From: Escherichia coli 042
Lineage (GTDB): Bacteria > Pseudomonadota > Gammaproteobacteria > Enterobacterales > Enterobacteriaceae
DNA length: 64,000 nucleotides
NCBI RefSeq assembly: GCF_000027125.1
Contig: NC_017626.1
Reading direction: 5' to 3' (one strand)
Shown here: positions 20,498 to 47,416 of the stretch, piece by piece
Numbering within the stretch: the stretch's first letter is position 1
Layout: every line of letters starts with the position of its first letter
Made by a program: the position numbers and the translations under genes
Notes under the pieces: generated by a model
The model's input: the letters and a program-made list of their open reading frames with translations, nothing else
Told to the model about the DNA's origin: nothing
Database searches by the model: none

Positions 20498-20512
20498 CTT
20501 AATGCCTCGCGG

Positions 20513-21585: not shown

Positions 21586-22527
<942 letters not shown>

Positions 22528-23443: not shown

Positions 23444-24661
23444 ATGTCCCCCATTGAAAAATCCAGCAAATTAGAGAATGTCTGTTACGACATCCGTGGT
23501 CCGGTGCTGAAAGAAGCAAAACGCCTGGAAGAAGAAGGTAACAAGGTACTGAAACTGAACATCGGCAATCCTGCCCCGTTCGGTTTTGACGCGCCAGATG
23601 AAATCCTCGTTGACGTGATTCGCAACCTGCCTACCGCTCAAGGGTATTGCGATTCCAAAGGGCTTTACTCCGCGCGTAAAGCCATCATGCAGCACTACCA
23701 GGCTCGTGGCATGCGTGATGTTACCGTGGAAGATATTTACATCGGCAATGGTGTATCGGAGCTTATCGTTCAGGCAATGCAGGCATTGCTGAACAGCGGG
23801 GACGAAATGTTGGTTCCTGCACCTGATTACCCACTATGGACCGCGGCGGTTTCGCTCTCCAGCGGTAAAGCGGTGCATTATCTTTGCGATGAATCCTCTG
23901 ACTGGTTCCCGGACCTTGATGATATTCGCGCTAAAATTACGCCTCGTACGCGTGGGATCGTTATTATCAACCCAAATAACCCAACCGGCGCGGTATATTC
24001 CAAAGAGCTTTTAATGGAGATAGTGGAGATTGCACGTCAGCATAATCTCATTATCTTCGCCGATGAAATTTATGACAAAATTCTCTACGACGACGCTGAG
24101 CATCACTCAATTGCGCCGCTGGCACCTGATCTGCTGACCATTACCTTTAACGGACTGTCGAAAACGTACCGCGTTGCTGGCTTCCGTCAGGGGTGGATGG
24201 TGTTGAACGGGCCGAAAAAACACGCCAAAGGTTACATCGAAGGTCTGGAAATGCTGGCTTCAATGCGCCTGTGTGCTAACGTTCCTGCGCAACACGCCAT
24301 TCAGACCGCACTAGGCGGTTATCAGAGCATCAGTGAATTTATTACTCCCGGCGGGCGTCTTTATGAGCAGCGTAACCGCGCGTGGGAATTGATCAACGAT
24401 ATTCCGGGCGTTTCCTGCGTGAAACCGCGCGGTGCGCTGTACATGTTCCCGAAAATCGACGCCAGGCGCTTTAACATTCACGACGATCAGAAAATGGTGC
24501 TGGATTTCCTGTTGCAGGAAAAAGTTCTGTTGGTGCAAGGGACGGCATTCAACTGGCCGTGGCCGGATCACTTCCGCATTGTCACTCTGCCGCGAGTCGA
24601 TGATATCGAGCTGTCTTTGAGTAAGTTCGCGCGTTTCCTTTCTGGTTATCATCAGCTGTAA
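23444..24661 (+). CDS. alaA: Glutamate-pyruvate aminotransferase AlaA (PLP-dependent, class I)
   Basis: 405-aa ORF; SD aaaaaggtcaag; PLP-lysine motif context (NGLSKTYRVAGFRQGW). Confidence 0.93.
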   Translation: MSPIEKSSKLENVCYDIRGPVLKEAKRLEEEGNKVLKLNIGNPAPFGFDAPDEILVDVIRNLPTAQGYCDSKGLYSARKAIMQHYQARGMRDVTVEDIYIGNGVSELIVQAMQALLNSGDEMLVPAPDYPLWTAAVSLSSGKAVHYLCDESSDWFPDLDDIRAKITPRTRGIVIINPNNPTGAVYSKELLMEIVEIARQHNLIIFADEIYDKILYDDAEHHSIAPLAPDLLTITFNGLSKTYRVAGFRQGWMVLNGPKKHAKGYIEGLEMLASMRLCANVPAQHAIQTALGGYQSISEFITPGGRLYEQRNRAWELINDIPGVSCVKPRGALYMFPKIDARRFNIHDDQKMVLDFLLQEKVLLVQGTAFNWPWPDHFRIVTLPRVDDIELSLSKFARFLSGYHQL

Positions 24662-24670
24662 TCTTAATTT

Positions 24671-24704
24671 CACTGCCGGAGATTGCATCCGGCAGTGTTA
24701 TCCC
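24671..24704 (+). terminator. Putative alaA terminator hairpin
   Basis: cactgccgga / tccggcagtg 10-bp stem with 7-nt loop followed by ttatccc (weak U-tract). Confidence 0.5.
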
Positions 24705-24744
24705 GCCACAATGACCTGATGATGTCATCATACGTAAGGTCACT

Positions 24745-25344
24745 ATGAAACAGAGCCATTTTTTTGCCCATCTCTCCCGCCTGAAACTCATTAACCGCTG
24801 GCCGCTAATGCGCAATGTGCGGACGGAAAATGTGTCCGAACACAGTTTGCAGGTAGCGATGGTCGCCCATGCGCTGGCAGCTATCAAAAATCGTAAATTT
24901 GGCGGTAATGTCAACGCCGAACGTATCGCTTTACTGGCGATGTACCACGATGCCTCAGAAGTGCTTACCGGCGATCTCCCTACCCCGGTGAAATACTTCA
25001 ATTCGCAAATCGCTCAGGAATACAAGGCTATAGAAAAAATCGCTCAGCAAAAACTGGTCGATATGGTTCCGGAAGAGCTGCAGGATATTTTTGCGCCGTT
25101 AATTGACGAGCATGCATATAGCGATGAAGAAAAATCGTTGGTGAAACAGGCAGATGCACTATGTGCATATCTGAAATGTCTGGAAGAACTCGCGGCGGGA
25201 AATAATGAATTCTTGCTGGCAAAAACGCGACTGGAAGCGACGCTTGAAGCGCGCCGCAGCCAGGAGATGGACTACTTCATGGAAGTCTTTGTTCCCAGCT
25301 TCCATCTTTCGCTCGATGAGATTAGCCAGGATTCACCGCTGTAA
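24745..25344 (+). CDS. yfbR: HD-domain 5-prime-deoxynucleotidase YfbR
   Basis: 199-aa ORF; HD motif ([12 protein letters not shown] ... [13 protein letters not shown]). Confidence 0.9.
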
Positions 25345-25350
25345 GCAGCC

Positions 25351-25398
25351 GGAGTCTGCGTCGCATCAGGCAATAAGCGCCGGATGCGACATCAGGCT
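25351..25398. repeat. REP-like palindrome between convergent yfbR and yfbS
   Basis: gtcgcatc...gatgcgac inverted repeat with REP-type sequence (gcgtcgcatcaggc / cggatgcgacatcagg). Confidence 0.65.
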
Positions 25399-25402
25399 CT
25401 TG

Positions 25403-27235
25403 TCAAAACGGAAACAGCATCGGGATCATCACCACACAAACCGCCATCACGATAATGGTGAACGGTACCCCCAACTTCACAAAGTCACTGAAGCTGTAAT
25501 TTCCCGGACCTAAAACCAGTGTGTTAACAGGTGAAGAAACCGGTGTCATAAAGGCGGCGGATGCTGCCATCGCCACGACCATCGCAAATGGATAAGGCGA
25601 CACACCCATCGTTTTGGCAGCAGCCAGCGCAATCGGAGCCATCAACACCGCCGTTGCGGTATTAGAGATAAATAGCCCAATAACCGCCGACAAGACAAAC
25701 AAACAACCCAGCATCATATGTGGCCCGTAACCGCCGCCAATGTCCATCAGCCCTTTCACCGCCAGCGCGACACCTCCCGTTTTCTGTAATGCCACAGCAA
25801 ACGGCATCATCCCAACGATCAAAATAATGCTCGGCCAGTGAATGGATTTATAGGCGCTTTCAGCATCGATACAACGGAATTTCCCCATCAGCAGGCAGGC
25901 GATGATAGCGGCAACAGGATTAGGGATTTCATCGGTAAGCATTAACGCTACCATCAACACCAGGCAAAAAATGGCATGAGGTGCCTGACTGTGTGCTGGC
26001 GATGCTTCACTCACTTCTTCTGGTAAGTTCAGCGCCACAAAGTCACGCCCCTGTTTTGCCAGCATACCGATCAGTTTCCAGTTACCCACAACCAGGATGA
26101 TATCGCCCAGCAGCAGAGGCTCATCCGCCAGCGAACCTTCCATCGCCTCGCCATTGCGCTTTAGCCCCACCACATTCAGTCCGTAGCGGGTACGAAAACC
26201 AATTTCGCGCACCGATTTACCAATAAGTTCTGACTCAGGAATTAATGAAATCTCTGCCATGCCCACATCAAGTGCCTGGTCAGAAAAATACTCGCCGCGT
26301 AGTACCATCGGCTCCAGCAACTGCTCACTACAAAATTGCCGGAGATCGACATCAGCCGCAGACATATCAATAAGCAAAACGTCACGCGCGCGAAATTCAG
26401 AAACCCCGTTAACATTCACGATAACGCGACGAAAACGCCGCCAGCGTTCAACACCGATGACGTTAGCGCCATAACGCTCACGTAATTTGAGATCGTCCAG
26501 CCGTTGACCAATCATTGGCGAACCGGGGCGAATAGCCAGACGACGCGCACGCCCGGTCAGTCGATATTCACGGATAAGATCGCGAAAGGTTCGACGCGTC
26601 CAGCCTTCGCGCTGTGGGGTCTGGGTATCCCCTTTCAGCATGAAACGCATCACTAACATATACAAAATACCCAGCACCAGCACGACCAGGCCAATAGGTG
26701 TTACGCTAAAGAAACTAAAACCATGATAGCCTTCACGCAGCAATTCACTGTTGACTACCAGGTTCGGCGGCGTCGCCACCAGCGTCATCATGCCGCTTAT
26801 CAGCCCGGCAAAACTTAACGGCATCATCAGGCGCGACGGCGACGTTTGCATACGCATGGCAACGCTTAACACCACGGGAATAAAGATAGCGACAACGCCG
26901 GTTGAACTCATAAACGCGCCAAGCCCCGCGACGGTCAGCATCAACAAAACCAACATTTTGATTTCACTGTTGCCCGCCACTTTGACCAGCCATGTCCCCA
27001 TTACAGTGGCAACACCGGTACGGACCAAACCATCGCCAATAATGAACAAGGCGGCAATCAGGACAACGTTAGGATCGGAAAAGCCGGAAAATACTTCGGG
27101 GACAGTCAGCGTTCCGCTTAATGCAAACGCGACAATAACAAACAAAGCGACCGCATCCATACGCACTCTGCCCGTCGCAAACAAGACGATGGCAACGGCC
27201 AGTAATGAAAGAACCCAAATCAATTCACCGTTCAC
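25403..27235 (-). CDS. yfbS: Putative anion/ion transporter YfbS with two TrkA-C domains
   Basis: 610-aa ORF; polytopic hydrophobic N- and C-terminal halves separated by a cytoplasmic region. Confidence 0.88.
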
Positions 27236-27321
27236 AACTTATCCTTGTTAATTGAGGGGGATGACTTGATTCTGCCATAAAAAAGCCCCGACGAGACGGG
27301 GCTAAATCATGATCAGGTGTT

Positions 27322-27972
27322 TCACTGAATAATAACATCGCCATTTGGCTGTTTGGTCACAGTAATTTGCTCCAGACTGTGGAGGACTAAATCGACCTCA
27401 TTCAGGCGCGGGGTATCTGCCGGAGCGTTAACCGCAATGACATGACAACCCGCAGCCAGGCCAGAAAGCACGCCAGCGGGAGCATCTTCCACCACCACAC
27501 ACTCCTGCGGCGCAAGCCCCAGCAGCTGCGCGCCTAGCAGATACGCATCAGGTTCTGGTTTTCCGCGCTTCACTCGCTCAGCGGTCACAAACACCTCTGG
27601 CGCGGGAAGCCCAGCTATTTTATGGCGCGCTCGCGCTACCGGCATGGAGCCAGAAGTCACAATGGCCCACGGAATACCTGCTTTATTCAAATGATTGAGT
27701 AAGGCGATTGCCCCCGGAAGTGCGGTAATACCTTCGGTTTCCGTGGCCTCGATGTGCTCCAGACGCGTAAACTCGGCGGCAATGTCTGCCTCGGATTTGC
27801 CCGCCATAAAATGGCGCAAAGAGGTGATCGCCTGTTTACCGTGAATAAAAGCCAGCACCTCTTCCGGCGCTAACCCATGACGTCTGGCCCAGTTGCTCCA
27901 CGCCCGTTCTACCGCAGGCAGGGAATCCACCAGCGTTCCATCAAGATCAAACAGAAAACCTTTGCACCGCAC
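27322..27972 (-). CDS. yfbT: HAD-superfamily sugar-phosphate phosphatase YfbT (HxpA)
   Basis: 216-aa ORF; HAD motif I FDLDGTLVDS at N-terminus. Confidence 0.9.
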   Translation of the reverse strand: MRCKGFLFDLDGTLVDSLPAVERAWSNWARRHGLAPEEVLAFIHGKQAITSLRHFMAGKSEADIAAEFTRLEHIEATETEGITALPGAIALLNHLNKAGIPWAIVTSGSMPVARARHKIAGLPAPEVFVTAERVKRGKPEPDAYLLGAQLLGLAPQECVVVEDAPAGVLSGLAAGCHVIAVNAPADTPRLNEVDLVLHSLEQITVTKQPNGDVIIQ

Positions 27973-27982
27973 GCGGGCCTCC

Positions 27983-28558
<576 letters not shown>

Positions 28559-29014
28559 TTACAAATCATCAAGGAAAGTTTTATCCAGTTGTTTGAAGGC
28601 GCGCTTAAGCGTGTCAGCTAATGCCTGGTAATCAGGCTTGCCTTCAACGGGTGCCAACACCTGTCCAGACTCCTGCAATTTACCGCGAACTTCATAAAAC
28701 CAGTTAAGGATTGCAGGGGGTAATGGCGTTACAGAACGTTTGCCCAGCCACCACAATCCCTGCATGGGTAAACTTAAAGCGAACAGCGCAGTGGCAACTG
28801 CCGGCCCAAGCTGACCGCCCAGGGCAATCTGCCAGCAGAGAGTAAATACGGCGATCGGCGGCATAAAACGGATCGCATAACGCGTCATCTTGATAACGCG
28901 ATTTTCGACAAAGACCGGGGCAAGGCGTTTTTCCAGCGGCCACGTCTTTGAGTAATGCTGTCCCCGGCGAAACAAGCTAAAAAAATTAACAGAACGATTA
29001 TCCGGCGTTGACAT
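28559..29014 (-). CDS. yfbV: UPF0208 inner-membrane protein YfbV
   Basis: 151-aa ORF with two hydrophobic segments; divergent from ackA. Confidence 0.85.
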
Positions 29015-29351
29015 GCTTCACCTCAACTTCACATATAAAGATTCAAAAATTTGTGCAAATTCACAACTCAGCGGGACAACGTTCAAAACATTTTGTCTTC
29101 CATACCCACTATCAGGTATCCTTTAGCAGCCTGAGGGCCTAAGTAGTACATATTCATTGAGTCGTCAAATTCATATACATTATGCCATTGGCTGAAAATT
29201 ACGCAAAATGGCATAGACTCAAGATATTTCTTCCATCATGCAAAAAAAATTTGCAGTGCATGATGTTAATCATAAATGTCGGTGTCATCATGCGCTACGC
29301 TCTATGGCTCCCTGACGTTTTTTTAGCCACGTATCAATTATAGGTACTTCC

Positions 29352-30554
29352 ATGTCGAGTAAGTTAGTACTGGTTCTGAACTGCGGTAGTTCTTCACTGA
29401 AATTTGCAATCATCGATGCAGTAAATGGTGAAGAGTACCTTTCTGGTTTAGCCGAATGTTTCCACCTGCCCGAAGCACGTATCAAATGGAAAATGGACGG
29501 CAATAAACAGGAAGCGGCTTTAGGTGCAGGCGCCGCTCACAGCGAAGCGCTCAACTTTATCGTTAATACTATTCTGGCACAAAAACCAGAACTGTCTGCG
29601 CAGCTGACTGCTATCGGTCACCGTATCGTACACGGCGGCGAAAAGTATACCAGCTCCGTAGTGATCGATGAGTCTGTTATTCAGGGTATCAAAGATGCAG
29701 CTTCTTTTGCACCGCTGCACAACCCGGCTCACCTGATCGGTATCGAAGAAGCTCTGAAATCTTTCCCACAGCTGAAAGACAAAAACGTTGCTGTATTTGA
29801 CACCGCGTTCCACCAGACTATGCCGGAAGAGTCTTACCTCTACGCCCTGCCGTACAACCTGTACAAAGAGCACGGCATCCGTCGTTACGGCGCGCACGGC
29901 ACCAGCCACTTCTATGTAACCCAGGAAGCGGCAAAAATGCTGAACAAACCGGTAGAAGAACTGAACATCATCACCTGCCACCTGGGCAACGGTGGTTCCG
30001 TTTCTGCTATCCGCAACGGTAAATGCGTTGACACCTCTATGGGCCTGACCCCGCTGGAAGGTCTGGTCATGGGTACCCGTTCTGGTGATATCGATCCGGC
30101 GATCATCTTCCACCTGCACGACACCCTGGGCATGAGCGTTGACGCAATCAACAAACTGCTGACCAAAGAGTCTGGCCTGCTGGGTCTGACCGAAGTGACC
30201 AGCGACTGCCGCTATGTTGAAGACAACTACGCGACGAAAGAAGACGCGAAGCGCGCAATGGACGTTTACTGCCACCGCCTGGCGAAATACATCGGTGCCT
30301 ACACTGCGCTGATGGATGGTCGTCTGGACGCTGTTGTATTCACCGGTGGTATCGGTGAAAATGCCGCGATGGTTCGTGAACTGTCTCTGGGCAAACTGGG
30401 CGTGCTGGGCTTTGAAGTTGATCATGAACGCAACCTGGCTGCACGTTTCGGCAAATCTGGTTTCATCAACAAAGAAGGTACCCGTCCTGCGGTGGTTATC
30501 CCAACCAACGAAGAACTGGTTATCGCGCAAGACGCGAGCCGCCTGACTGCCTGA
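29352..30554 (+). CDS. ackA: Acetate kinase
   Basis: 400-aa ORF; N-terminal [13 protein letters not shown] motif. Confidence 0.97.
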
Positions 30555-30628
30555 TTTCACACCGCCAGCTAAGCTGGCGGTGCTGTTTTGTAACCCGCCA
30601 AATCGGCGGTAACGAAAGAGGATAAACC

Positions 30629-32773
30629 GTGTCCCGTATTATTATGCTGATCCCTACCGGAACCAGCGTCGGTCTGACCAGCGTCAGCCTTGGCGTGATC
30701 CGTGCAATGGAACGCAAAGGCGTTCGTCTGAGCGTTTTCAAACCTATCGCTCAGCCGCGTACCGGTGGCGATGCGCCCGATCAGACTACCACTATCGTGC
30801 GTGCGAACTCTTCCACCACGACGGCCGCTGAACCGCTGAAAATGAGCTACGTTGAAGGTCTGCTTTCCAGCAATCAGAAAGATGTGCTGATGGAAGAGAT
30901 CGTCGCAAACTACCACGCTAACACCAAAGACGCTGAAGTCGTTCTGGTTGAAGGTCTGGTCCCGACACGTAAGCACCAGTTTGCCCAGTCTCTGAACTAC
31001 GAAATCGCTAAAACGCTGAATGCGGAAATCGTCTTCGTTATGTCTCAGGGCACTGACACCCCGGAACAGCTGAAAGAGCGTATCGAACTGACCCGCAACA
31101 GCTTCGGCGGTGCCAAAAACACCAACATCACCGGCGTTATCGTTAACAAACTGAACGCACCGGTTGATGAACAGGGTCGTACTCGCCCGGATCTGTCCGA
31201 GATTTTCGACGACTCTTCCAAAGCTAAAGTAAACAATGTTGATCCGGCGAAGCTGCAAGAATCCAGCCCGCTGCCGGTTCTCGGCGCGGTGCCGTGGAGC
31301 TTTGACCTGATCGCGACTCGTGCGATCGATATGGCTCGCCACCTGAATGCGACCATCATCAACGAAGGCGACATCAATACTCGCCGCGTTAAATCCGTCA
31401 CTTTCTGCGCACGCAGCATTCCGCACATGCTGGAGCACTTCCGTGCCGGTTCTCTGCTGGTGACTTCCGCAGACCGTCCTGACGTGCTGGTTGCCGCTTG
31501 CCTGGCTGCCATGAACGGCGTAGAAATCGGTGCCCTGCTGCTGACTGGCGGCTACGAAATGGACGCGCGCATTTCTAAACTGTGCGAACGTGCTTTCGCT
31601 ACCGGCCTGCCGGTATTTATGGTGAACACCAACACCTGGCAGACTTCTCTGAGCCTGCAGAGCTTCAACCTGGAAGTTCCGGTTGACGATCACGAGCGTA
31701 TCGAGAAAGTTCAGGAATACGTTGCTAACTACATCAACGCTGACTGGATCGATTCTCTGACTGCCACTTCTGAGCGCAGCCGTCGTCTGTCTCCGCCAGC
31801 GTTCCGTTATCAGCTGACTGAACTTGCGCGCAAAGCGGGCAAACGTATCGTTCTGCCGGAAGGTGACGAACCGCGTACCGTTAAAGCAGCCGCTATCTGT
31901 GCTGAACGTGGTATCGCAACTTGCGTACTGCTGGGTAATCCGGCAGAGATCAACCGTGTTGCAGCGTCTCAGGGTGTAGAACTGGGTGCAGGCATTGAAA
32001 TCGTTGATCCAGAAGTGGTTCGCGAAAGCTATGTTGGTCGTCTGGTCGAACTGCGTAAGAACAAAGGCATGACCGAAACCGTTGCCCGCGAACAGCTGGA
32101 AGACAACGTGGTTCTCGGTACGCTGATGCTGGAACAGGATGAAGTTGATGGTCTGGTTTCCGGTGCTGTTCACACCACCGCAAACACCATCCGTCCGCCG
32201 CTGCAGCTGATCAAAACTGCACCGGGCAGCTCCCTGGTATCTTCCGTGTTCTTCATGCTGCTGCCGGAACAGGTTTACGTTTACGGTGACTGTGCGATCA
32301 ACCCGGATCCGACCGCAGAACAGCTGGCAGAAATCGCGATTCAGTCCGCTGATTCCGCTGCGGCCTTCGGTATCGAACCGCGCGTTGCTATGCTCTCCTA
32401 CTCCACCGGGACTTCTGGTGCTGGTAGCGACGTAGAAAAAGTTCGCGAAGCAACTCGTCTGGCGCAGGAAAAACGTCCTGACCTGATGATCGACGGTCCG
32501 CTGCAGTACGACGCTGCGGTAATGGCTGACGTTGCGAAATCCAAAGCGCCGAACTCTCCGGTTGCAGGTCGCGCTACCGTGTTCATCTTCCCGGATCTGA
32601 ACACCGGTAACACCACCTACAAAGCGGTACAGCGTTCTGCCGACCTGATCTCCATCGGGCCGATGCTGCAAGGTATGCGCAAACCGGTTAACGACCTGTC
32701 CCGTGGCGCACTGGTTGACGATATCGTCTACACCATCGCGCTGACTGCGATTCAGTCTGCACAGCAGCAGTAA
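30629..32773 (+). CDS. pta: Phosphate acetyltransferase (three-domain Pta)
   Basis: 714-aa ORF directly downstream of ackA; C-terminal PTA_PTB catalytic domain. Confidence 0.97.
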
Positions 32774-32813
32774 TCTCGTCATCATCCGCAGCTTTGCGCT
32801 GCGGATATCTGAA

Positions 32814-32843
32814 CCGGAAATAGTCACTATTTCCGGTTTTTTA
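32814..32843 (+). terminator. Rho-independent terminator of ackA-pta
   Basis: Stem ccggaaata/tatttccgg with loop gtcac followed by TTTTTTATT; preceded by a second hairpin atccgcagc/gctgcggat at 32784..32806. Confidence 0.85.
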
Positions 32844-32962
32844 TTCTCTTAATTTGCATTAATCCTTTCTGATTATCTTGCTTAACTGCGCTGCATCAAT
32901 GAATTGCGCCATCTCACTTTGCATACTTACCACTTTGTTTTGTGCAAGGGAATATTTGCGCT

Positions 32963-34483
32963 ATGTCCGCAATCACTGAATCCAAACCAACCAGAAGATG
33001 GGCAATGCCCGATACGTTGGTGATTATCTTTTTTGTTGCCATTTTAACCAGTCTTGCCACCTGGGTAGTTCCGGTGGGGATGTTTGACAGTCAGGAAGTG
33101 CAGTATCAGGTTGATGGTCAAACAAAAACTCGCAAAGTCGTAGATCCACACTCTTTTCGCATTCTGACTAACGAAGCAGGCGAACCTGAGTATCACCGCG
33201 TACAGCTGTTCACGACGGGCGATGAACGCCCGGGTCTGATGAACTTCCCGTTTGAAGGGTTAACCTCAGGATCGAAATACGGGACAGCCGTTGGCATCAT
33301 CATGTTTATGCTGGTGATTGGCGGCGCGTTTGGCATTGTGATGCGTACAGGAACCATTGATAACGGTATCCTGGCGCTTATTCGCCATACCCGCGGAAAT
33401 GAAATTCTCTTTATTCCTGCGCTCTTTATTCTGTTTTCACTTGGCGGCGCGGTATTTGGTATGGGAGAAGAGGCCGTCGCCTTTGCCATTATCATCGCAC
33501 CGCTAATGGTCCGGCTAGGCTATGACAGTATTACCACCGTCCTGGTGACCTATATCGCCACGCAAATCGGTTTTGCCAGTTCGTGGATGAACCCGTTTTG
33601 TGTGGTTGTTGCTCAGGGGATTGCCGGCGTTCCGGTGCTTTCTGGCTCCGGGTTGCGCATCGTGGTGTGGGTTATCGCCACTCTGATTGGCCTGATCTTT
33701 ACCATGGTGTACGCCTCACGAGTGAAAAAGAATCCTCTTCTGTCACGCGTGCATGAGTCCGACCGCTTCTTTCGTGAAAAGCAGGCGGATGTTGAACAAC
33801 GTCCGTTTACCTTTGGTGACTGGCTGGTATTGATTGTCCTGACCGCCGTAATGGTCTGGGTGATTTGGGGCGTGATCGTTAATGCCTGGTTTATTCCAGA
33901 AATTGCCAGCCAGTTCTTCACCATGGGTCTGGTGATTGGCATCATCGGCGTTGTTTTCCGCCTTAACGGCATGACGGTTAATACCATGGCTTCATCCTTT
34001 ACCGAAGGGGCGCGAATGATGATCGCCCCTGCCCTGCTGGTGGGTTTCGCCAAAGGGATTTTGCTGCTGGTCGGTAATGGTGAAGCGGGTGATGCCAGCG
34101 TGTTAAATACCATCCTCAACAGCATTGCCAATGCCATTAGCGGTCTGGACAATGCGGTCGCGGCCTGGTTTATGTTGCTCTTCCAGGCGGTATTTAATTT
34201 CTTCGTGACGTCCGGTTCTGGTCAGGCGGCGTTAACCATGCCGTTACTGGCACCGCTTGGCGATCTGGTCGGTGTTAACCGTCAGGTTACCGTGCTGGCG
34301 TTCCAGTTTGGTGATGGCTTCAGCCACATCATTTACCCGACCTCAGCTTCGTTAATGGCAACGCTAGGTGTTTGCCGGGTGGACTTCCGTAACTGGCTGA
34401 AGGTGGGCGCGACACTGCTTGGACTGCTGTTTATTATGTCCAGCGTCGTGGTGATCGGCGCTCAGTTGATGGGCTACCACTAA
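32963..34483 (+). CDS. yfcC: Putative membrane transporter YfcC (C4-dicarboxylate anaerobic carrier-like)
   Basis: ORF 32942..34483; probable start at MSAITESK (506 aa); many hydrophobic helices. Confidence 0.85.
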   Translation: MSAITESKPTRRWAMPDTLVIIFFVAILTSLATWVVPVGMFDSQEVQYQVDGQTKTRKVVDPHSFRILTNEAGEPEYHRVQLFTTGDERPGLMNFPFEGLTSGSKYGTAVGIIMFMLVIGGAFGIVMRTGTIDNGILALIRHTRGNEILFIPALFILFSLGGAVFGMGEEAVAFAIIIAPLMVRLGYDSITTVLVTYIATQIGFASSWMNPFCVVVAQGIAGVPVLSGSGLRIVVWVIATLIGLIFTMVYASRVKKNPLLSRVHESDRFFREKQADVEQRPFTFGDWLVLIVLTAVMVWVIWGVIVNAWFIPEIASQFFTMGLVIGIIGVVFRLNGMTVNTMASSFTEGARMMIAPALLVGFAKGILLLVGNGEAGDASVLNTILNSIANAISGLDNAVAAWFMLLFQAVFNFFVTSGSGQAALTMPLLAPLGDLVGVNRQVTVLAFQFGDGFSHIIYPTSASLMATLGVCRVDFRNWLKVGATLLGLLFIMSSVVVIGAQLMGYH

Positions 34484-34515
34484 AAATGTTAAGAGCCGCA
34501 ATTGCGGCTCTTTTT

Positions 34516-35058
34516 TCATTCTGCCGTTTCAGTCTCTACGGCTTCATTTTTGGCATTGCGCTTCATCCACAACGCCAGCGCTTTCAGCGAGTCTGGAGTG
34601 AACTCATCGCAGCGTGCGGTGATTTCTTCCGGTGTCAGCCAGCAAACTTCACTGACTTCATCTTCCTGTAGGGCGAAGGGACCGTGAGAGACGCAACTGA
34701 ACAACGCGCCCCAGACACGGCAATTTTTATCTTCGAAATAGAACTGCCCGTGCTCGGCAAAGGGGACACCGGCAATGCCCAACTCTTCTTCCGCTTCGCG
34801 ACGCGCGGATTCCAGCAGTTGCTCATCGGCCTGGACTACACCGCCTGCGGTCGCATCTAACATGCCGGGTAAAAAGTCTTTTGTCTCGGTACGACGCTGG
34901 ACCAGAATTTTGCCCATGCCATCATGCACGACGATGTAAGTTGCACGATGACGCAGACACTGTGCCCGCATTTGTTCCCGGCTGGCTTGTGCAATGACTT
35001 CGTTCTCTTCATTGACAATATCCACCCATTCAGTACTTGCCAAACGACGCTGTTCCAT
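34516..35058 (-). CDS. yfcD: Nudix hydrolase YfcD
   Basis: 180-aa ORF; Nudix box ([23 protein letters not shown]). Confidence 0.88.
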
Positions 35059-35115
35059 TATCAGGAAACCTTCTTTTTCTGGCGCTCTTACGGCGCATTT
35101 TGAGTTGTGGGTAAA

Positions 35116-35670
35116 TTACGGATTAATCGCGACCTGCGCAATGATACTTTGATCATTGAGTGCGATTACACTAAGTACGTCATTATCCAGCATGCCATAA
35201 CTCGCCGGATTACCGCCTTTAGGAATACTCACCGAGCCGGGGTTAAAGTGGAAAATCTCCCCCCGCTGTTCTGCCACTGGCAGATGGGTATGACCGTACA
35301 CCAGCACATCGTTCTGGTTTAAAGCAGGCAGATTTTCCGGCCCAAACAGATGACCATGCGTCAAAAACAGACGTTGTTTTTCCAGTAATACCTGTTGCCA
35401 CGGCGCGGTTATCGGGAAATGCAAAAGCATTTGATCCACTTCGCTGTCGCAGTTGCCGCGCACAGCGATAACCTTATGTGCCACTTCATTAAGCCGTTCA
35501 GCGACTTTGGCTGGCGCGTAACCCTCCGGTAAAGCATTACGCGGGCCGTGATTCAACACGTCGCCAAGGATCACCAGCCACTGGGCACCGCTTTGGGCAA
35601 ACAACTCCAGAACACGTTCCGTCGCCGGTAACGACCCATGAATGTCCGATGCAAACATCAGTTTCATCAC
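35116..35670 (-). CDS. yfcE: Metallophosphoesterase (phosphodiesterase) YfcE
   Basis: 184-aa ORF; calcineurin-like motifs (DIHG, GDVLNHG, GNCD, GHTH). Confidence 0.88.
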   Translation of the reverse strand: MMKLMFASDIHGSLPATERVLELFAQSGAQWLVILGDVLNHGPRNALPEGYAPAKVAERLNEVAHKVIAVRGNCDSEVDQMLLHFPITAPWQQVLLEKQRLFLTHGHLFGPENLPALNQNDVLVYGHTHLPVAEQRGEIFHFNPGSVSIPKGGNPASYGMLDNDVLSVIALNDQSIIAQVAINP

Positions 35671-35673
35671 TCA

Positions 35674-37150
<1,477 letters not shown>

Positions 37151-37206
37151 CAGAAACAGGTTCTCGTGTATTATTTCATTCTAAGTAAAACAACGGAGAA
37201 CCTGCA

Positions 37207-37569
37207 ATGGCACAACCTGCCGCTATTATTCGTATAAAGAACCTTCGTTTACGTACATTTATCGGAATTAAGGAAGAAGAAATTAACAACCGTCAGGATA
37301 TTGTTATCAATGTGACGATCCACTACCCCGCCGATAAAGCGCGCACTAGCGAAGATATCAACGATGCGCTGAATTATCGCACCGTAACGAAAAACATTAT
37401 TCAGCATGTAGAGAATAACCGTTTCTCTTTGCTGGAAAAATTAACTCAGGATGTGCTCGATATCGCACGTGAACATCACTGGGTGACGTATGCTGAAGTG
37501 GAGATCGATAAACTGCACGCGCTGCGCTACGCCGATTCGGTATCCATGACCTTAAGCTGGCAGCGTTAA
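37207..37569 (+). CDS. folX: Dihydroneopterin triphosphate 2-prime-epimerase
   Basis: 120-aa ORF; FolB/FolX fold; ggaga SD. Confidence 0.9.
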
Positions 37570-37589
37570 CCGCCATATCGGGAGGCTGC

Positions 37590-38483
37590 ATGAACATAGT
37601 GATCACCGGAGGGACGGGATTAATTGGTCGCCATTTGATTCCACGTTTGCTGGAGCTGGGCCATCAAATCACGGTAATGACGCGTAACCCGCAGAAAGCC
37701 AGTTCTGTTCTCGGCCCTCGGGTGACACTATGGCAAGGGCTTGCCGATCAAAGCAACCTCAACGGCGTTGATGCGGTAATCAACCTGGCCGGAGAACCGA
37801 TTGCTGATAAACGCTGGACTCACGAGCAAAAAGAGCGTCTCTGCCAAAGCCGCTGGAATATCACGCAAAAACTGGTCGATTTGATTAATGCCAGCGACAC
37901 GCCGCCGTCGGTACTCATTTCCGGCTCGGCAACGGGCTATTATGGCGACTTAGGTGAAGTGGTGGTTACCGAAGAGGAACCGCCGCATAACGAATTTACT
38001 CATAAACTCTGCGCCCACTGGGAAGAAATTGCCTGCCGGGCGCAAAGTGACAAAACGCGAGTGTGCCTGCTGCGTACCGGCGTAGTGCTGGCACCGGATG
38101 GCGGTATTCTCGGTAAAATGCTGCCGCCGTTTCGTCTTGGCCTGGGCGGGCCGATTGGTTCCGGTCGGCAGTATCTGGCCTGGATTCATATTGATGATAT
38201 GGTCAACGGCATTCTCTGGCTGCTCGATAACGAGCTGCGCGGGCCATTTAATATGGTTTCGCCCTACCCGGTACGCAATGAACAATTTGCCCATGCGCTC
38301 GGTCATGCGCTGCATCGCCCGGCCATTTTGCGCGTCCCCGCGACCGCTATTCGACTGTTAATGGGCGAATCTTCAGTACTGGTATTAGGCGGTCAACGCG
38401 CCTTGCCTAAACGGTTGGAAGAAGCGGGTTTTGCGTTTCGCTGGTACGATTTAGAAGAGGCGCTGGCGGATGTTGTTCGCTGA
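37590..38483 (+). CDS. yfcH: NAD-dependent epimerase/dehydratase family protein YfcH
   Basis: 297-aa ORF; N-terminal Rossmann GxxGxxG (ITGGTGLIG). Confidence 0.88.
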
Positions 38484-38530
38484 TGTGGTCTACTGCAAAC
38501 ATCCGCCAGTTAATTCCCGGTGTTACAGGA

Positions 38531-39421
38531 TTAGTGGTTTTGCGCGATAAGATCGTCTGGCGAAAGTCGGGTCAGCGTCAGGATGACTTCGTAGTCAAAT
38601 CCTTTTTCCAGCATCTCCTGAGCAATACGCAGGGCTTCTTCGTGTTTGCCCTGCATTGCGCCTTCTTCACGTAATCTGTCAGCAATGGTCATCAGTTTCT
38701 CCTTTTCTTGTGGTGCGCGTTCCGCTATCTCACCAATAAATGCACGGAAACGCTGGGCATCCCCCGTTTGTAATACGTAATTAAACAGGGCTTTTAGCTG
38801 TCTGTCATTAGTGTTCCCTGTAACTAGCAGCGAAACAATTTGGTCGACTAATCCCAACAGATCGCGCTGACGAATATGTTTCTGAATTAACTCCAACAGC
38901 GCCATTTTGCGATGTTGCATAATCTCGTCATCCGGCACCACGGTAATATCCACCAGCGGAAAAGCCGATGAATAAATTTTGCGGGCAATCGCAGGCTCGG
39001 CAAATTCATCAAGCCAGCAGAGTGAATATGGATAAGGGCTTCTGCAACCATGATAAAACAGCATCGGGATCACTAATGGAAGCTCTTTATAGCCCGCATC
39101 AAGATGGTTTTGCATCGCCGCAATGGAATAGCGCATCATGCGAAAAGCCATTAATTCCTCTGGCTTACTTTGGTGCTCTATCACCACATAAATATAACCC
39201 GCTCCCTCCTGCGTTTTCACAGACCACAAGAGGTCGGAATAATATTGCCGCAGGTCTTCATCAATAAAACTGTTTGGTTCCAGTTTAAGCGTTGTTAAAT
39301 CACACAGTTTGCGCAGCGGCGCGGGAAGATGAATATCAATAAAATCCCGCGCGGTGTCTGGATGGCGTAAAAAAGATTTAAATACCGCATCATGCGGCGT
39401 GGAAGTTGTCGATATTGTCAT
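38531..39421 (-). CDS. rpnB: Rpn-family recombination-promoting nuclease / transposase_31-like protein (RpnB, YfcI)
   Basis: 296-aa ORF; PD-(D/E)xK-type N-terminal region (YIYVVIEHQ); recognised as YfcI/RpnB. Confidence 0.85.
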
Positions 39422-39616
39422 GGCGTTCCGTCACCCCTCAAATTTAAGATGACGCGACAATAACCACGATTTACACCCAATGCAGCAGGCAGTTTTTATC
39501 TTTGGACAGCGAATTCAGAAGTATTTTTAGCGGACTGCAACTTTTACATTTCAGCGGAAGCGGACTCGCAAATTCCCCATGAAATACTCCGGCAGCGTTA
39601 GCCACCGGAGGGGGAA

Positions 39617-40390
39617 TTATTTCAGCGAACCTTTAAGGAACTGTTGCAGACGAGGACTTTGCGGGTTACCGAATAACTGTTCTGGCGCGCCCTCTTCTTC
39701 TATTTTCCCCTGATGGAGGAAAATGACGTGAGTAGAAACATGGCGAGCAAAGCCCATTTCGTGGGTCACCACCACCATGGTTTTCCCCTCTTCTGCCAGT
39801 TGCTGCATAATACGCAACACTTCGCCTACCAGTTCAGGATCGAGCGCCGAGGTAGGTTCATCAAACAGTAAAACTTCCGGTTCCATCGCCAGCGCCCGCG
39901 CGATAGAAACACGCTGTTGCTGACCACCGGACAGGTGCACCGGGTATTTCCCCTGCGCACGTTCGTCTATCCCGACTTTCGCCAGATACTTCACCGCCCG
40001 CTCGCGCGCTTCCTGCTTGCTCAGGCCCAACACCTGAATCGGCGCTTCCATGACGTTTTCCAGCACCGTCATATGGCTCCAGAGATTGAAGTGCTGGAAT
40101 ACCATCGTCAGGCGTGTGCGCAGTAAGCGCAGCTGATTTTTATCGGCGACTTTGAGTTGACCATCTTTGTCGCGCACCAGATTGATCGTCTGGCCATTGA
40201 CCACGATCGACCCTTCACTCGGTTTTTCGAGGAAGTTAATGCAGCGCAGAAAGGTACTTTTCCCCGATCCCGACGATCCGATGATGCTTATGACATCTCC
40301 GGCATTCGCTTGCAGTGAGACCCCTTTCAGCACTTCGTGTTCGCCGTAGCGTTTGTGCAAATCGATAACGTTTAATTTATTCTCGGACAT
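39617..40390 (-). CDS. hisP: Histidine/basic amino acid ABC transporter ATP-binding protein
   Basis: 257-aa ORF; Walker [13 protein letters not shown] signature LSGGQQQR, Walker [12 protein letters not shown]. Confidence 0.96.
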
Positions 40391-40630
40391 CGTATTCTCA
40401 GTGCGTTGAAGAAGGTTTCACATGCTGCAACCAGCGTTTTTCCGCTCTGCGAAAGAGGCTGATCAGGACATAAGAGACCCCTTTCAGCACTTCGTGTTCG
40501 CCGTAGCGTTTGTGCAAATCGATAACGTTTAATTTATTCTCGGACATCGTATTCTCAGTGCGTTGAAGAAGGTTTCACATGCTGCAACCAGCGTTTTTCC
40601 GCTCTGCGAAAGAGGCTGATCAGGACATAA
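40317..40630. repeat. Perfect 157-bp direct tandem duplication (2 copies: 40317..40473 and 40474..40630) spanning the hisM 3-prime end / hisP 5-prime end
   Basis: Character-by-character comparison shows both copies identical; the 4 nt after copy 2 (gaga) equal the first 4 nt of the unit (junction microhomology). Confidence 0.95.
40398..40547 (-). CDS. Chimeric micro-ORF created by the duplication: first 24 codons of hisP fused in frame to the last 24 codons of hisM (49 aa)
   Basis: Manual translation from the duplicated hisP start (40545..40547): [49 protein letters not shown]-stop; carries the duplicated native hisP ribosome-binding context. Expression unproven. Confidence 0.45.
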
Positions 40631-41271
40631 GAGATGATTAAATAGAGCACCGCGGCAATGCCGAAGGCGGTAAAAGGTTGATACGTGGCGGCGTTAATAT
40701 CGCGGGCTATTTTCAGCAGATCCGGCACCGTGGCCGTAAACGCCAGCGCAGTAGAGTGCAGCATCAGGATCACTTCGTTGCTGTATGCCGGTAACGCAAT
40801 ACGCAGCGCAGAAGGCAAAATAATGCAGCGATACATTTTAAAGGTCGAGAAGCCATAGGCTCTGGCGGCTTCGATTTCCCCATGCGGCACTGAACGGATC
40901 GCTCCGGCAAAAATCTCGGTAGTGTAAGCGCAGGTGTTGAGCGTCAGCGCCAGCACGGTACAGTTCAGGCCACTGCGAAAAAAGGCGTTAAGGAACTCGG
41001 TTCCCTTAACAATTTCCAGCGTGTACATGCCGGAATAGAACACCAGCAACTGAACATACAGCGGCGTACCGCGAAAAATATACGTAAATAACCAGATTGG
41101 AAACTGGATGTATTTATTACTTGAGACGCGACCAATCGCCAGAAACAGCGCCATGACTCCGCCTATCACTACCGACAAAATCAGCAGCCACAGGGTGATC
41201 GCCACGCCAGTAAAGCGATAACCGTCGGTCCACAGCAGTGGTTTCCAGTATTCATGTAAGATTTCGATCAC
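40555..41271 (-). CDS. hisM: Histidine ABC transporter permease
   Basis: 238-aa ORF; polytopic permease; start overlaps hisQ stop. Confidence 0.96.
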   Translation of the reverse strand: MIEILHEYWKPLLWTDGYRFTGVAITLWLLILSVVIGGVMALFLAIGRVSSNKYIQFPIWLFTYIFRGTPLYVQLLVFYSGMYTLEIVKGTEFLNAFFRSGLNCTVLALTLNTCAYTTEIFAGAIRSVPHGEIEAARAYGFSTFKMYRCIILPSALRIALPAYSNEVILMLHSTALAFTATVPDLLKIARDINAATYQPFTAFGIAAVLYLIISYVLISLFRRAEKRWLQHVKPSSTH

Positions 41272-41954
41272 AGGTCAGCCCTCTTCACACCCACGGAGTA
41301 GCGGCGCTCAAGGAACAGCAGCACACCATTGGAAACGGTGGTGAAAACCAGGTAAATCACGCCACAAACGATGGCGAAATAGAACGGTTCCCAGGTACTT
41401 TTGCCTGCCAGTTGGGTGGCTTTGACCACATCTTCCAGGCCAAGTAACGAAACCAGAGCGGTAGATTTGAGGATCACCTGCCAGTTGTTGCCAATGCCTG
41501 GCAGGGCGTAACGCATCATCGCCGGAAACATGATCCGCCGAAACACTTGCCCACGAGTAAAACCGAACGCCGTCGCCGCCTCTATATGCCCTTTCGGCAC
41601 AGCCATAAACGCGCCACGGAACGTTTCGGTAAAGTAAGCACCGTAGATAAAACCGAGAGTAATAATACCTGCGACCATCGGATCAATATCAATCTGCCCG
41701 ACGCCCATCGCCTCCGTCACCGTGTTTAGTGCAATCTGCAAACCGTAGAAAATCAGCAGCATCAACACCAAGTCCGGCACGCCACGAATCAGCGTGGTGT
41801 AGCCTTCGAAAATCAGCCCCGAAAGCCGATTTTGCGAGAGCTTACCGCCAGCGCCAATTAAACCGATGATTACAGCGAGCACTACAGAGCTGATAGCCAG
41901 CTCCAGCGTGACGAGCGCACCCTGTAAAATAACACCTGAAAACCCATACAACAT
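41268..41954 (-). CDS. hisQ: Histidine ABC transporter permease
   Basis: 228-aa ORF; ABC permease. Confidence 0.96.
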   Translation of the reverse strand: MLYGFSGVILQGALVTLELAISSVVLAVIIGLIGAGGKLSQNRLSGLIFEGYTTLIRGVPDLVLMLLIFYGLQIALNTVTEAMGVGQIDIDPMVAGIITLGFIYGAYFTETFRGAFMAVPKGHIEAATAFGFTRGQVFRRIMFPAMMRYALPGIGNNWQVILKSTALVSLLGLEDVVKATQLAGKSTWEPFYFAIVCGVIYLVFTTVSNGVLLFLERRYSVGVKRADL

Positions 41955-41995
41955 GCAGCCTGTCCTGTCGTGTGTGGTGAATTACCGCCTCTTGT

Positions 41996-42019
41996 CTCCC
42001 TCCGGTTACCTGAAGGGAG
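41996..42019 (-). other. Intercistronic stem-loop between hisJ and hisQ (ctccct-N12-agggag)
   Basis: Inverted repeat read from sequence in the 89-bp hisJ-hisQ gap; analogous intercistronic hairpins in the his transport operon are described as mRNA-stabilising elements. Confidence 0.5.
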
Positions 42020-42043
42020 CGGGCTTTCTTTCACCGATGGCGA

Positions 42044-42826
42044 TTAACCACCATAAACATCAAAATCGAAGTACTTTTTCGCTAATTTCTCGTAAGTACC
42101 GTCAGCGCGCATTTCGGCAAAGGCTTTGTTCAGTGCCTCGCGCAGTTCGTTATCTTCTTTACGCAGGCCCATGCCGGTCCCTACGCCAAACAGTTTTTCA
42201 TCTTTAACAGACGGGCCACCGAATTTGTAATCTTTACCGACTGGCTGCTTGAGGAAACCTTCGCTGGCAGCGACCTCATCCTGGAACGCGGCATCAATAC
42301 GTCCGGCAGTCAGGTCAGAATAAATGTTGTCCTGCCCCTGATACGAGACGATTTCAATGCCTTTTGGTGCCCAGTGTTCGTTACCGAACGTCTCCTGGGT
42401 GGTGCCCTGCAATACGCCTACCCGCTTGCCTTTCAGCGACTCGACTGTCGGCTGAATGTCGGAATTTTTCGCCACCACCAGACGAGAATCGGCAGCGTAC
42501 AGTTTGTCGGTGAAGGCAATTTCTTGCTGACGTTTTTCCGTAATGGAAAGCGATGACATGATGGCGTCAATCTTCTTCGCTTTTAAGGACGGGATTAACG
42601 CATCCAGTGGGTTTTCGACAAACGTACATTGCGTATTGATGCGTTTGCACAACTCCTTCGCCAGATCGATATCGAAGCCAACCAGTTCGCCTTGTGAATT
42701 TTTTGATTCAAATGGCGCATAGGTCGGATCGGTACCGATGCGGATGTTTTGCGGAATCGCAGCAAACGCCGCAGTTGCGCTGGAGAAGGCCAGAACCAGA
42801 GAGAGTGATAGCACCAGTTTTTTCAT
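42044..42826 (-). CDS. hisJ: Histidine-binding periplasmic protein
   Basis: 260-aa ORF with signal peptide ([22 protein letters not shown]); about 70 percent identical to adjacent argT. Confidence 0.96.
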
Positions 42827-43046
42827 AATGTCCTCAACTGACAGTCTTTTTATAGGGAATATTTACAGGTTTGTTACACTTATCGTGCCATAAAATTGAC
42901 CATCAAGGCAAAATATCCCGCCCCGTTAGACGTATTATTTTTCATTAAAAATGCTTAAGTATGCATTTCAATGCACCACGATAGTGCAACAAACCTGGCG
43001 TGCACCATGATGATCATTCCATCAGGTACAGTTTCCCTGCGACGTA

Positions 43047-43829
43047 TCAGTCACCGTAGACATTAAAGTCGAAATACTTTTTCGCCATCTTGTCGTAGGT
43101 ACCGTCCTGACGCAGCTCGCCAAGCGCCTTATTAAACGCCGCCGTCAGTTCAGCATCATCTTTACGTAGCCCTACACCGGTACCGTCACCGAAGTATTTT
43201 TTGTCTTTCACTGATGAGCCAGCAAAGGCGAACTCTTTACCAGCAGGTTGCTTGAGGAATCCTTCGCTGGCCGCCACTTCATCCTGCAGTGCGGCATCCA
43301 GACGTCCTGCAGCCAGATCGGAATAGACCAAATCCTGGTTGGCATAGGCCACCACATCCACGCCTTTGCTACGCCAGGTCTCGTTAGCGTAAGCTTCCTG
43401 GGTTGATCCCTGCAGCACACCCACATGTTTACCTTTCAGTGAATCCAGCGTTGGCTGAATCGGCGAACCTTTGGCGGCAATCAAACGAGAATCTGCGGCG
43501 TACAGCTTGTCGGAGAAGGCAATCTCCTGCTGACGTTTATCGGTAATGGAAAGCGACGAAATAATGGCGTCGATTTTTTTCGCTTTCAGTGAGGGGATCA
43601 GCGCGTCAAAGTCACTGGCAACCCAGGTACATTTCACCTGCATCCGTTTGCACATCTCGTTACCCAGATCGATATCAAAGCCAACAAAGTCACCTTTGGC
43701 ATCTTTCGATGAGAACGGCGCATAGGTGGTATCGGTTCCGATACGTACCGTCTCCGGTAGCGCCGCATAGCTGGAAGCCGCTGCGGAGAGACCGACTAAC
43801 AAAGACAGAGCGAGAATCGACTTCTTCAT
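43047..43829 (-). CDS. argT: Lysine/arginine/ornithine-binding periplasmic protein
   Basis: 260-aa ORF with signal peptide; tandem paralogue of hisJ. Confidence 0.96.
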
Positions 43830-44059
43830 ACATAACCCTCAAGTGAAAATGGCTTTTTTATGTTGTGTATTGTGTTGTGTGTTTGCAGGCTCTTTCATGC
43901 AGGTCTTATGCCATCTTGCCGACAGCAGTAACATTCAACGTTAAATATGTTAATAAGACGTTGTATTATTGTCCTGAAATTGAAGATAGCAGGTATGGCG
44001 GTTGAATCGCAGCGTTTCGATTCATAGAAAGGAACAAAATGTCGAGGATTTGATCGCGG

Positions 44060-44090
44060 TTGCAAAATTGCCCTGAAACAGGGCAACAGC
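44060..44090 (-). terminator. Rho-independent terminator downstream of ubiX
   Basis: Perfect 8-bp stem ttgccctg/cagggcaa with aaa loop (44068..44086); on the minus strand it is followed by TTTTGCAA. Confidence 0.7.
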
Positions 44091-44094
44091 GGAG

Positions 44095-44664
44095 TTATGC
44101 GCCCTGCCAGCGGGCAAAGAGATCTTCAGGAAGGGTTATCGTAAACTGGTCAAGAACACGATTAACCGTCTGATTTATCACATCATCAAGCGACTGCGGG
44201 CGATGATAAAACGCCGGAACGGGAGGCATAATCACTGCACCGATTTCTGCCGCCTGGGTCATTAAACGCAGATGGCCTAAGTGCAATGGTGTTTCACGCA
44301 CGCAGAGCACCAGCGGGCGACGCTCTTTCAGCACAACATCTGCCGCACGGGTCAGTAAACCATCAGTATAGCTATGGACAATGCCGGACAGGGTTTTGAT
44401 TGAACAGGGTAAAATCACCATCCCCAGCGTCTGGAAAGAACCAGAAGAGATGCTGGCAGCAATATCGCGCGCATCATGCGTGACATCGGCTAATGCCTGC
44501 ACTTCGCGCAGGGAAAAATCCGTTTCAAGAGATAAGGTCTGGCGCGCTGCCTGGCTCATCACCAGATGCGTTTCAACATCTGCGACATCGCGCAGAACCT
44601 GTAATAAGCGCACGCCATAAATCGCGCCGCTGGCACCGCTGATGCCTACAATAAGTCGTTTCAT
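44095..44664 (-). CDS. ubiX: Flavin prenyltransferase UbiX
   Basis: 189-aa ORF; flavoprotein fold (LIVGISGASGAIYG). Confidence 0.95.
   Translation of the reverse strand: MKRLIVGISGASGAIYGVRLLQVLRDVADVETHLVMSQAARQTLSLETDFSLREVQALADVTHDARDIAASISSGSFQTLGMVILPCSIKTLSGIVHSYTDGLLTRAADVVLKERRPLVLCVRETPLHLGHLRLMTQAAEIGAVIMPPVPAFYHRPQSLDDVINQTVNRVLDQFTITLPEDLFARWQGA

Positions 44665-46965: not shown

Positions 46966-47416
<451 letters not shown>

Follow-up and report, generated by a model that had tools for sequence, protein, structure and literature searches.

Tandem hisJ and argT genes of Escherichia coli 042 are very probably ancient duplicates that evolve independently of each other

The periplasmic binding protein genes hisJ and argT lie in tandem within a 64,000-nucleotide stretch of the Escherichia coli 042 genome (contig NC_017626.1), which was analysed as a whole and is hereafter called the window. 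They are very probably ancient tandem duplicates that have evolved independently under purifying selection, with no gene conversion maintaining their similarity. An initial annotation of the window had described the similarity of the pair as 'extensive', with long stretches of near-identical DNA, and had proposed that such direct repeats allow unequal crossing-over or gene conversion, in keeping with a rearrangement-prone locus.

Both genes appeared in the ORF list and in the sequence as minus-strand ORFs of 783 bp that encode 260 aa each. The gene at positions 42044..42826 is hisJ, which encodes the histidine periplasmic binding protein, and the gene at 43047..43829 is argT, which encodes the lysine/arginine/ornithine (LAO) periplasmic binding protein, whose 260 aa include a 22-aa signal peptide. 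The hisJ product scored 599.4 bits over residues 1–260 against the HisJ equivalog NF011965 (NCBIfam, cut-off 459 bits), against which the argT product scored 423.8 bits, under the cut-off. Conversely, the argT product scored 582.8 bits over its full length against the ArgT equivalog NF011586 (NCBIfam, cut-off 440 bits), and the hisJ product scored 434.7 bits, again under the cut-off. Both products matched Pfam SBP_bac_3 (PF00497, family-3 solute-binding proteins) with 143.6 and 140.9 bits, where the gathering score is 26.4. Residues 23–260 of the hisJ product were aligned end to end with the HisJ PDB chains 1HSL/1HPB and 2M8C (E-values of 1e-155 to 1e-158), and the same residues of the argT product with the LAO PDB chains 1LAF/2LAO/1LST (E-values of approximately 1e-147). 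In RefSeq, the upstream gene at the collinear K-12 locus is likewise annotated as argT. The identification of the pair as tandem paralogues, and the names given to them, were thus backed by the NCBIfam equivalogs, solved structures, and RefSeq.

The start-to-start spacing of argT and hisJ was 1003 bp, and the gap between them was exactly 220 bp (42827..43046); both this separation and the coordinates of the genes, as given by the initial annotation, could be read exactly from the sequence. The gene order was ubiX-argT-hisJ-hisQ-hisM-hisP, with purF and cvpA also located upstream, on the argT side. The ORFs of hisQ (41268..41954), hisM (40555..41271), and hisP (39617..40390), which were named through the collinear K-12 RefSeq locus and together span 39617..41954 on the minus strand, encode the membrane translocator and the ATPase and follow hisJ. 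With argT and hisJ immediately preceding hisQ, hisM, and hisP on one strand, the locus has the architecture of the argT-hisJQMP operon.

The HisJ and ArgT proteins were aligned without gaps and shared 174 of 260 residues (67%), or 164 of 238 (69%) in their mature parts, in agreement with the approximately 70% identity initially suggested. At the DNA level, 539 of 780 nucleotides (69.1%) were identical, and the identities at codon positions 1, 2, and 3 were 76, 85, and 46%, respectively. The longest exact run between the two genes was 14 nt (TCGCTTTCCATTAC, encoding SLSIT); eight runs reached at least 10 nt, and none reached 20 nt. The best windows of 50, 90, and 150 nt were 90, 87, and 79% identical, respectively. 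The peptide block that had been quoted as an example of near-identical DNA corresponds to aa 92–105 in each protein (hisJ 42512..42553 and argT 43515..43556), with 38 of 42 nucleotides identical. With a longest exact run of 14 nt, a DNA identity of 69%, and an identity of 46% at third positions, the description of 'extensive' similarity and long near-identical DNA did not hold. As true homologues, hisJ and argT are far more similar than unrelated DNA would be by chance, but their similarity does not exceed the level given by protein conservation combined with codon usage. Synonymous sites were essentially saturated (dS of 1.45–1.70 by three methods), while dN was 0.22–0.23.

The most similar 90-nt block of the pair lies on the minus strand at 42482..42571 in hisJ (gene nt 256–345, aa 86–115) and at 43485..43574 in argT. 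It contained 12 mismatches and included the 14-nt exact run, located at 42540..42553 and 43543..43556, respectively. In the HisJ and LAO structures, Ser70, Ser72, and Arg77 are, as we take it, the residues that bind the α-amino and carboxylate groups of the ligand, and the similarity of the block was attributed to protein constraint because it encodes these three presumed ligand-binding residues. They fall among mature residues 64–93, which the block encodes (numbering checked on Tyr14/Pro16, PMC5708682).

The DNA of the two genes was then compared with a null model in which both proteins were kept fixed and all synonymous codons were redrawn from the local codon usage 5000 times. Under this model, the longest run was expected to be 15.3 nt (95th percentile, 22 nt), compared with the 14 nt observed (P=0.74). 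The overall DNA identity of 69.1% was in slight excess of the 65.7–66.3% obtained under codon resampling (P of 0.001–0.007), and the best 90-nt block had 12 mismatches, compared with 18–19 under resampling (P of 0.006–0.015). Among the residues conserved between the proteins, 90 of 172 had identical codons, where approximately 75 were expected (z of approximately 2.4), and no clustering of these identical codons along the conserved residues was detected (maximum run of 7 versus 7.2 by permutation, P=0.60). We interpret this small excess of identity as ancestral signal that is not yet fully saturated, or as codon constraint at particular sites. A dS of approximately 1.6 leaves approximately 15–20% of synonymous sites unchanged by descent, which is enough to account for 90 rather than 75 identical codons, and conversion was not invoked because paralogues compared across genomes were equally similar in the same blocks. 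The DNA alignment that the initial annotation had proposed as a search for conversion tracts therefore yielded no tract above the expectation from protein constraint. Since this is the outcome that the annotation itself had named as contradicting it, its gene-conversion reading is refuted.

A scan of species-representative genomes retrieved 80 enterobacterial loci, 76 of which carried a complete tandem of argT followed by hisJ. Both genes encoded 260 aa in 75 of these 76 complete loci, and the gaps ranged from 163 to 327 bp. No hybrids were found among the 80 loci; of the four incomplete ones, one, in a Leclercia, had a frameshift in argT, and the remainder were cut off at an edge. For whole genes, the nearest neighbour was the same paralogue without exception in 152 sequences, and separate hisJ and argT clades were recovered everywhere. 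In 150-nt windows, the nearest neighbour was likewise the same paralogue, with one tie in 1368. In a GENECONV-style run test covering 76 genome pairs and 502 polymorphic sites, the longest concordant run of the window pair was 7 sites (P=0.93). This type of site-permutation test ignores uneven conservation along the gene and is thus anticonservative.

The hisJ and argT genes of the window differed at 241 positions, and either copy differed from the other gene of 75 foreign genomes at 242–247 positions on average. Exact runs of up to 29 nt were found between the window hisJ and some foreign argT genes, compared with 14 nt between hisJ and its own argT. When all 76 genomes were considered, the number of matches was higher by 4.7 in within-genome pairs than in cross-genome pairs (z=6.6 in a naive permutation). 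Genome-specific codon usage alone yielded an excess of 3.3 ± 1.0 matches, and the GC3 values of hisJ and argT were correlated (r=0.84). For orthologues diverged by 2–15%, the within-minus-cross difference was approximately 0 ± 0.7. The family-wide excess was consequently rejected as a sign of conversion, being mostly due to codon usage and disappearing between close relatives, although a small residue beyond codon usage may remain. Overall, the two signatures sought for concerted evolution were absent from these comparisons: similarity was equal within and across genomes, and no identity tract was longer than expected.

Two further candidates for exchange were considered and rejected. The 'KGSP' of hisJ in the Cedecea, Klebsiella, and Buttiauxella groups (nt 361–372), which resembles argT, was read as a shared ancestral state and not as conversion. 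Single-nucleotide polymorphisms directed towards the paralogue among Escherichia alleles appeared as scattered polymorphisms, with at least one W-private argT site matching hisJ among those listed.

Nucleotide-level selection acting alike on both genes, through position-specific codon choice, mRNA structure, or translation kinetics near the ligand-binding motif, could also leave identical codons, and we regard it as an unlikely source of the slight excess of shared synonymous codons in the conserved blocks. It agrees with the location of the excess in the same blocks within and across genomes, and both genes encode periplasmic proteins under similar expression control. However, the synonymous sites expected to remain unchanged by descent already suffice for the identical codons observed, and no structured RNA was detected.

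A second alternative, which we consider improbable, is that rare micro-conversions of at most 50 nt occurred in the blocks at nt ~226–345 and 540–586 in some enterobacterial lineages and added a little to the within-genome excess of long identical runs, with none detectable in 042. Runs of at least 30 nt were found in 9.2% of within-genome pairs and 2.2% of cross-genome pairs. The longest run averaged 21.3 nt within genomes and 19.3 nt across genomes (permutation P<0.0002). The match excess was highest at nt 271–375. The only nominal outlier was a 47–49-nt identical hisJ/argT tract at nt 540–586 in Enterobacter asburiae, with a global P of approximately 0.003 in the anticonservative test. Nevertheless, runs of up to 50 nt also linked hisJ and argT of different genera, where conversion is impossible, and did so in the same two blocks (nt ~240–330 and 540–590), which points to block-specific conservation rather than exchange. 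The Enterobacter asburiae tract was discounted as conversion for the same reason; it is weak evidence at most, and concerns another lineage. In addition, the within-genome excess vanished against closely related genomes, and most of it was reproduced by genome-specific codon usage. If such exchange did take place, highly diverged paralogues could still recombine wherever protein constraint maintains patches of identity that reach or exceed the minimal recombination length. The specific form of this idea, in which tracts of approximately 30–50 nt were occasionally swapped between the conserved blocks of hisJ and argT in some Enterobacteriaceae despite approximately 30% divergence, appears to us more doubtful still.

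Independent evolution of the two copies was also consistent with a survey of strains. Positions 41900..44100 of the window (2.2 kb) were searched by megablast against 5426 complete E. coli genomes, and at least 80% of the query was found in one place in 5425 of them. Forty survey records spread evenly along the ranking were each aligned in one piece. An allele from which unequal crossing-over had deleted 1003 bp would show a coverage of approximately 54%; no such allele and no hybrid was seen in the 5425 genomes, with two extra places and one unmatched genome lying outside this reading of the survey. The search for hisJ/argT hybrids among strains that had been suggested at the outset was thus carried out on complete genomes, and came back empty.

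This stability is in line with what is known of recombination in E. coli. Homologous recombination requires an unbroken identical stretch of 23–90 bp, known as the minimal efficient processing segment (PMC3758752), and mismatch repair renders recombination between diverged sequences negligible (reviewed in PMC3758752 and PMC9650840). With a longest run of 14 nt and a divergence of 31%, the minimal efficient processing segment is not reached by hisJ and argT. Given 69% identity and no run longer than 14 nt, the pair is too diverged to serve as an efficient substrate for RecA-dependent unequal crossing-over. The proposal that near-identical tracts are kept by gene conversion or unequal crossing-over in a rearrangement-prone locus, which would draw on direct repeats 1003 bp apart with approximately 70% identity, on the small synonymous excess of the window pair over the random-codon model, and on other small structural variants nearby in the 042 genome, is scarcely credible against exact runs no longer than expected and under the recombination requirement, a run test without signal, saturated dS, equal similarity within and across genomes, reciprocally monophyletic paralogues in 150-nt windows, the lack of hybrids and deletion alleles among 5425 E. 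coli genomes and 76 loci from different species, and an origin of the nearby variants in microhomology and a REP-type array. Run lengths, species, and strains therefore all spoke against the pair as a recombination substrate.

Structural variants were nonetheless present elsewhere in the window, which was collinear with K-12 at approximately 97–98% identity apart from two local differences. One is a perfect 157-bp tandem duplication (40317..40473 and 40474..40630) that covers the hisM stop and the start of hisP. The duplication originated at a 4-bp microhomology (TCTC), and its junction sequence was absent from all 5426 complete E. coli genomes, indicating that it is private to the 042 genome. 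Both hisM and hisP were left intact, and an in-frame 50-codon chimeric ORF, HisP(1–25)::HisM(C-terminal 25), was found between them. The other is a 91-bp REP/BIME-type array between cvpA and dedD, with five copies (46966..47416), more than in K-12. As to the 'REARRANGEMENT-prone locus' of the initial annotation, the wider locus does carry small variants, but neither of them uses hisJ/argT homology.

The 220-bp gap on the minus strand (42827..43046) is the likely promoter region of hisJQMP. It differed from K-12 at 2 of 220 positions, compared with 2.3–3.3% in the flanking genes. Three candidate elements, all on the minus strand, were recognized in the gap and upstream of argT by motif match only. 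A sigma-54-type −24/−12-like element (TGGCACGATAAGTGTA) is located at 42875..42890, 48 nt upstream of the hisJ ATG; a palindrome resembling an NtrC-binding site (TGCACTATCGTGGTGCA), matching 12 of 13 positions of TGCACC-N4-TGGTGCA, at 42972..42988; and a sigma-54-like promoter element (TGGCATAAGACCTGCA), matching 9 of 11 positions of TGGCAC-N5-TTGCA, at 43898..43913, 68 nt before the argT ATG. In an alignment of the gap from 13 genera, TGGCA of the TGGCAC was invariant, one Buttiauxella having TGGCAT, and GGTGCA half-sites recurred in most of the 13 genera. The full TGGCAC-N5-CTGCA is present in Citrobacter, whereas E. coli has GT for GC at −12. From the conserved TGGCAC −24-type element and the NtrC-like site, the gap looks regulatory, as had been supposed, and nitrogen control of both promoters through NtrC and sigma-54 may be expected from the literature.

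The 5' leader of argT contained a C/A-rich tract read from the sequence (CAAACACACAACACAATACACAACA, 43861..43885, minus strand), which presumably resembles the C/A-rich target sites of the GcvB sRNA in Salmonella argT. The spacer between hisJ and hisQ (41955..42043, minus strand) was predicted to form a stable hairpin (RNA fold of −28.6 kcal/mol, z=−2.4 versus shuffles). An Rfam scan of 41800..44200 with E-values up to 1 gave no match, and a sigma-70 consensus scan of the locus gave no sites. The terminator scan of the locus was at chance level, and the RNA fold following argT did not make a convincing terminator (z=−0.45).

Under the preferred reading of independent evolution after an old duplication, the event that produced hisJ and argT would be older than the radiation of the Enterobacteriaceae, and each copy would have evolved separately under purifying selection ever since (dN of 0.23 and dS of approximately 1.5–1.7). 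Judging from the literature, HisJ probably takes histidine and ArgT (LAO) lysine, arginine, and ornithine, and both are likely to pass their ligands to one shared ABC translocator, HisQMP2, which is encoded directly downstream. The remaining DNA similarity would then be the footprint of amino acids conserved in the ligand-binding blocks and possibly in blocks that dock to the translocator, together with common codon usage and a few synonymous sites still retained from the ancestor.

The hisJ/argT pair as such has been known since 1981, and the finding is an ordinary one; Higgins and Ames reportedly described the homology of the genes in that year from complete nucleotide sequences. Our literature search on the hisJ/argT gene duplication found nothing specific. 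The pair is among the oldest sequenced examples of bacterial gene duplication, and the present result matters little beyond bookkeeping. Had gene conversion been true, the pair would have offered a case of mild interest, in which binding proteins with different functions evolve in concert. The outcome was instead a clean negative: the two genes evolve independently, their structure is stable in 5425 E. coli genomes and in 76 species of enterobacteria, and they should not be marked as a recombination hotspot.

The locus has the same gene order as argT-hisJQMP of Salmonella Typhimurium and E. coli K-12, and K-12 has the same 220-bp gap. At the DNA level, the 042 allele and K-12 were 96.7% identical in argT and 97.7% in hisJ, and only one of the 5425 E. 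coli genomes was at least 99% identical to 042 over the 2.2 kb. The 157-bp hisM/hisP duplication downstream, private to 042, distinguishes it from the known argT-hisJQMP loci.

Gene pairs homogenized by conversion, such as tufA/tufB and the rRNA operons, keep approximately 99% identity inside a genome but diverge from one species to another. Although these are likewise duplicated genes within one genome, hisJ and argT are unlike tufA/tufB in that their within-genome identity (69%) equals the identity of the paralogues across genomes, and their synonymous sites are saturated. According to published work, HisJ and LAO share 70% identity and a common HisQMP2 permease (PMC5708682); the approximately 70% paralogue identity was matched here, and nothing differs in kind from the known system. 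A comparable design is found in the artPIQM-artJ arginine transporter, in which the paralogous binding proteins artJ and artI are served by one ABC translocator (PMC6640053). Both cases combine duplicated family-3 binding proteins of different specificities with one membrane complex. HisJ and ArgT matched the ArtJ/ArtI models with E-values of 1e-52 to 1e-56, under the cut-offs of those models, and the art system belongs to another locus and orthologous group, with proteins of 243 aa that are only distantly related to HisJ and ArgT.

The hisM/hisP junction, whose genes lie on the minus strand, carries a tandem duplication of 157 bp at 40317..40630, with two units (40317..40473 and 40474..40630) that are 100% identical. 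Each unit joins the 3' end of hisM to the initial 74 nt of hisP across a 7-bp spacer, and the distance between the two genes is therefore 164 bp in the window, compared with 7 bp in K-12. Both hisM and hisP remain intact, and an in-frame chimeric ORF of 50 codons, composed of HisP residues 1-25 and the last 25 residues of HisM, lies between them. A TCTC microhomology was observed at the duplication junction. A search of 5426 complete E. coli genomes with the 80-bp junction sequence gave no match; thus, the duplication is either private to the E. coli 042 genome or an assembly artefact. According to the K-12 annotation, hisP is directly followed downstream by rpnB (yfcI), which encodes a recombination-promoting nuclease (16788..17678 in the K-12 locus, corresponding to about 38500..39400 in the window).

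The source of the window is an uncommon E. coli lineage. Its identity to K-12 was approximately 97-98% across 42 kb, and the argT-hisJ region (41900..44100) was at least 99% identical in only one of 5425 genomes, that of strain GN25 from a night heron. For the neighbouring 20 kb (20000..40000), the top match among E. coli genomes reached just 99.1%. The argT-hisJ region had no match in one of the 5426 complete E. coli genomes, and the number of matching places exceeded that of records by two, which would mean that up to two genomes contain the region twice.

Across the orthologues from 80 enterobacterial argT-hisJ loci, HisJ was markedly more conserved than ArgT: between the window and Citrobacter or Salmonella, identity was 97-98% for HisJ (dN 0.008-0.012) versus 90-94% for ArgT (dN 0.027-0.041). 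The argT gene of Leclercia adecarboxylata NCTC13032 (about 2976..3760 of its locus) aligned as two pieces in differing frames; either the gene is a frameshifted pseudogene or its sequence contains an error. The neighbouring locus, also from Leclercia, was intact. Upstream of hisJ, the aligned gaps of loci L005-L075 contained a conserved, putative sigma-54-type element (42875..42890 in the window, minus strand). In this alignment, Citrobacter (TGGCACGATAACTGCA) and Salmonella carry the canonical GC at its -12 position and the Escherichia sequences carry GT (TGGCACGATAAGTGTA), which suggests that the putative hisJ promoter may be weakened or altered in Escherichia.

Repeats were also found in the cvpA-dedD intergenic region, where a 91-bp unit is present five times (96% matches) in a tandem array at 46966..47416 that includes REP/BIME-like sequence (…GGATGCGGCGTAAACGCCTTATCC…). 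When the window was aligned with K-12, a single K-12 segment matched this array several times over, so that, judging from the alignment, the array is expanded in the window relative to K-12.
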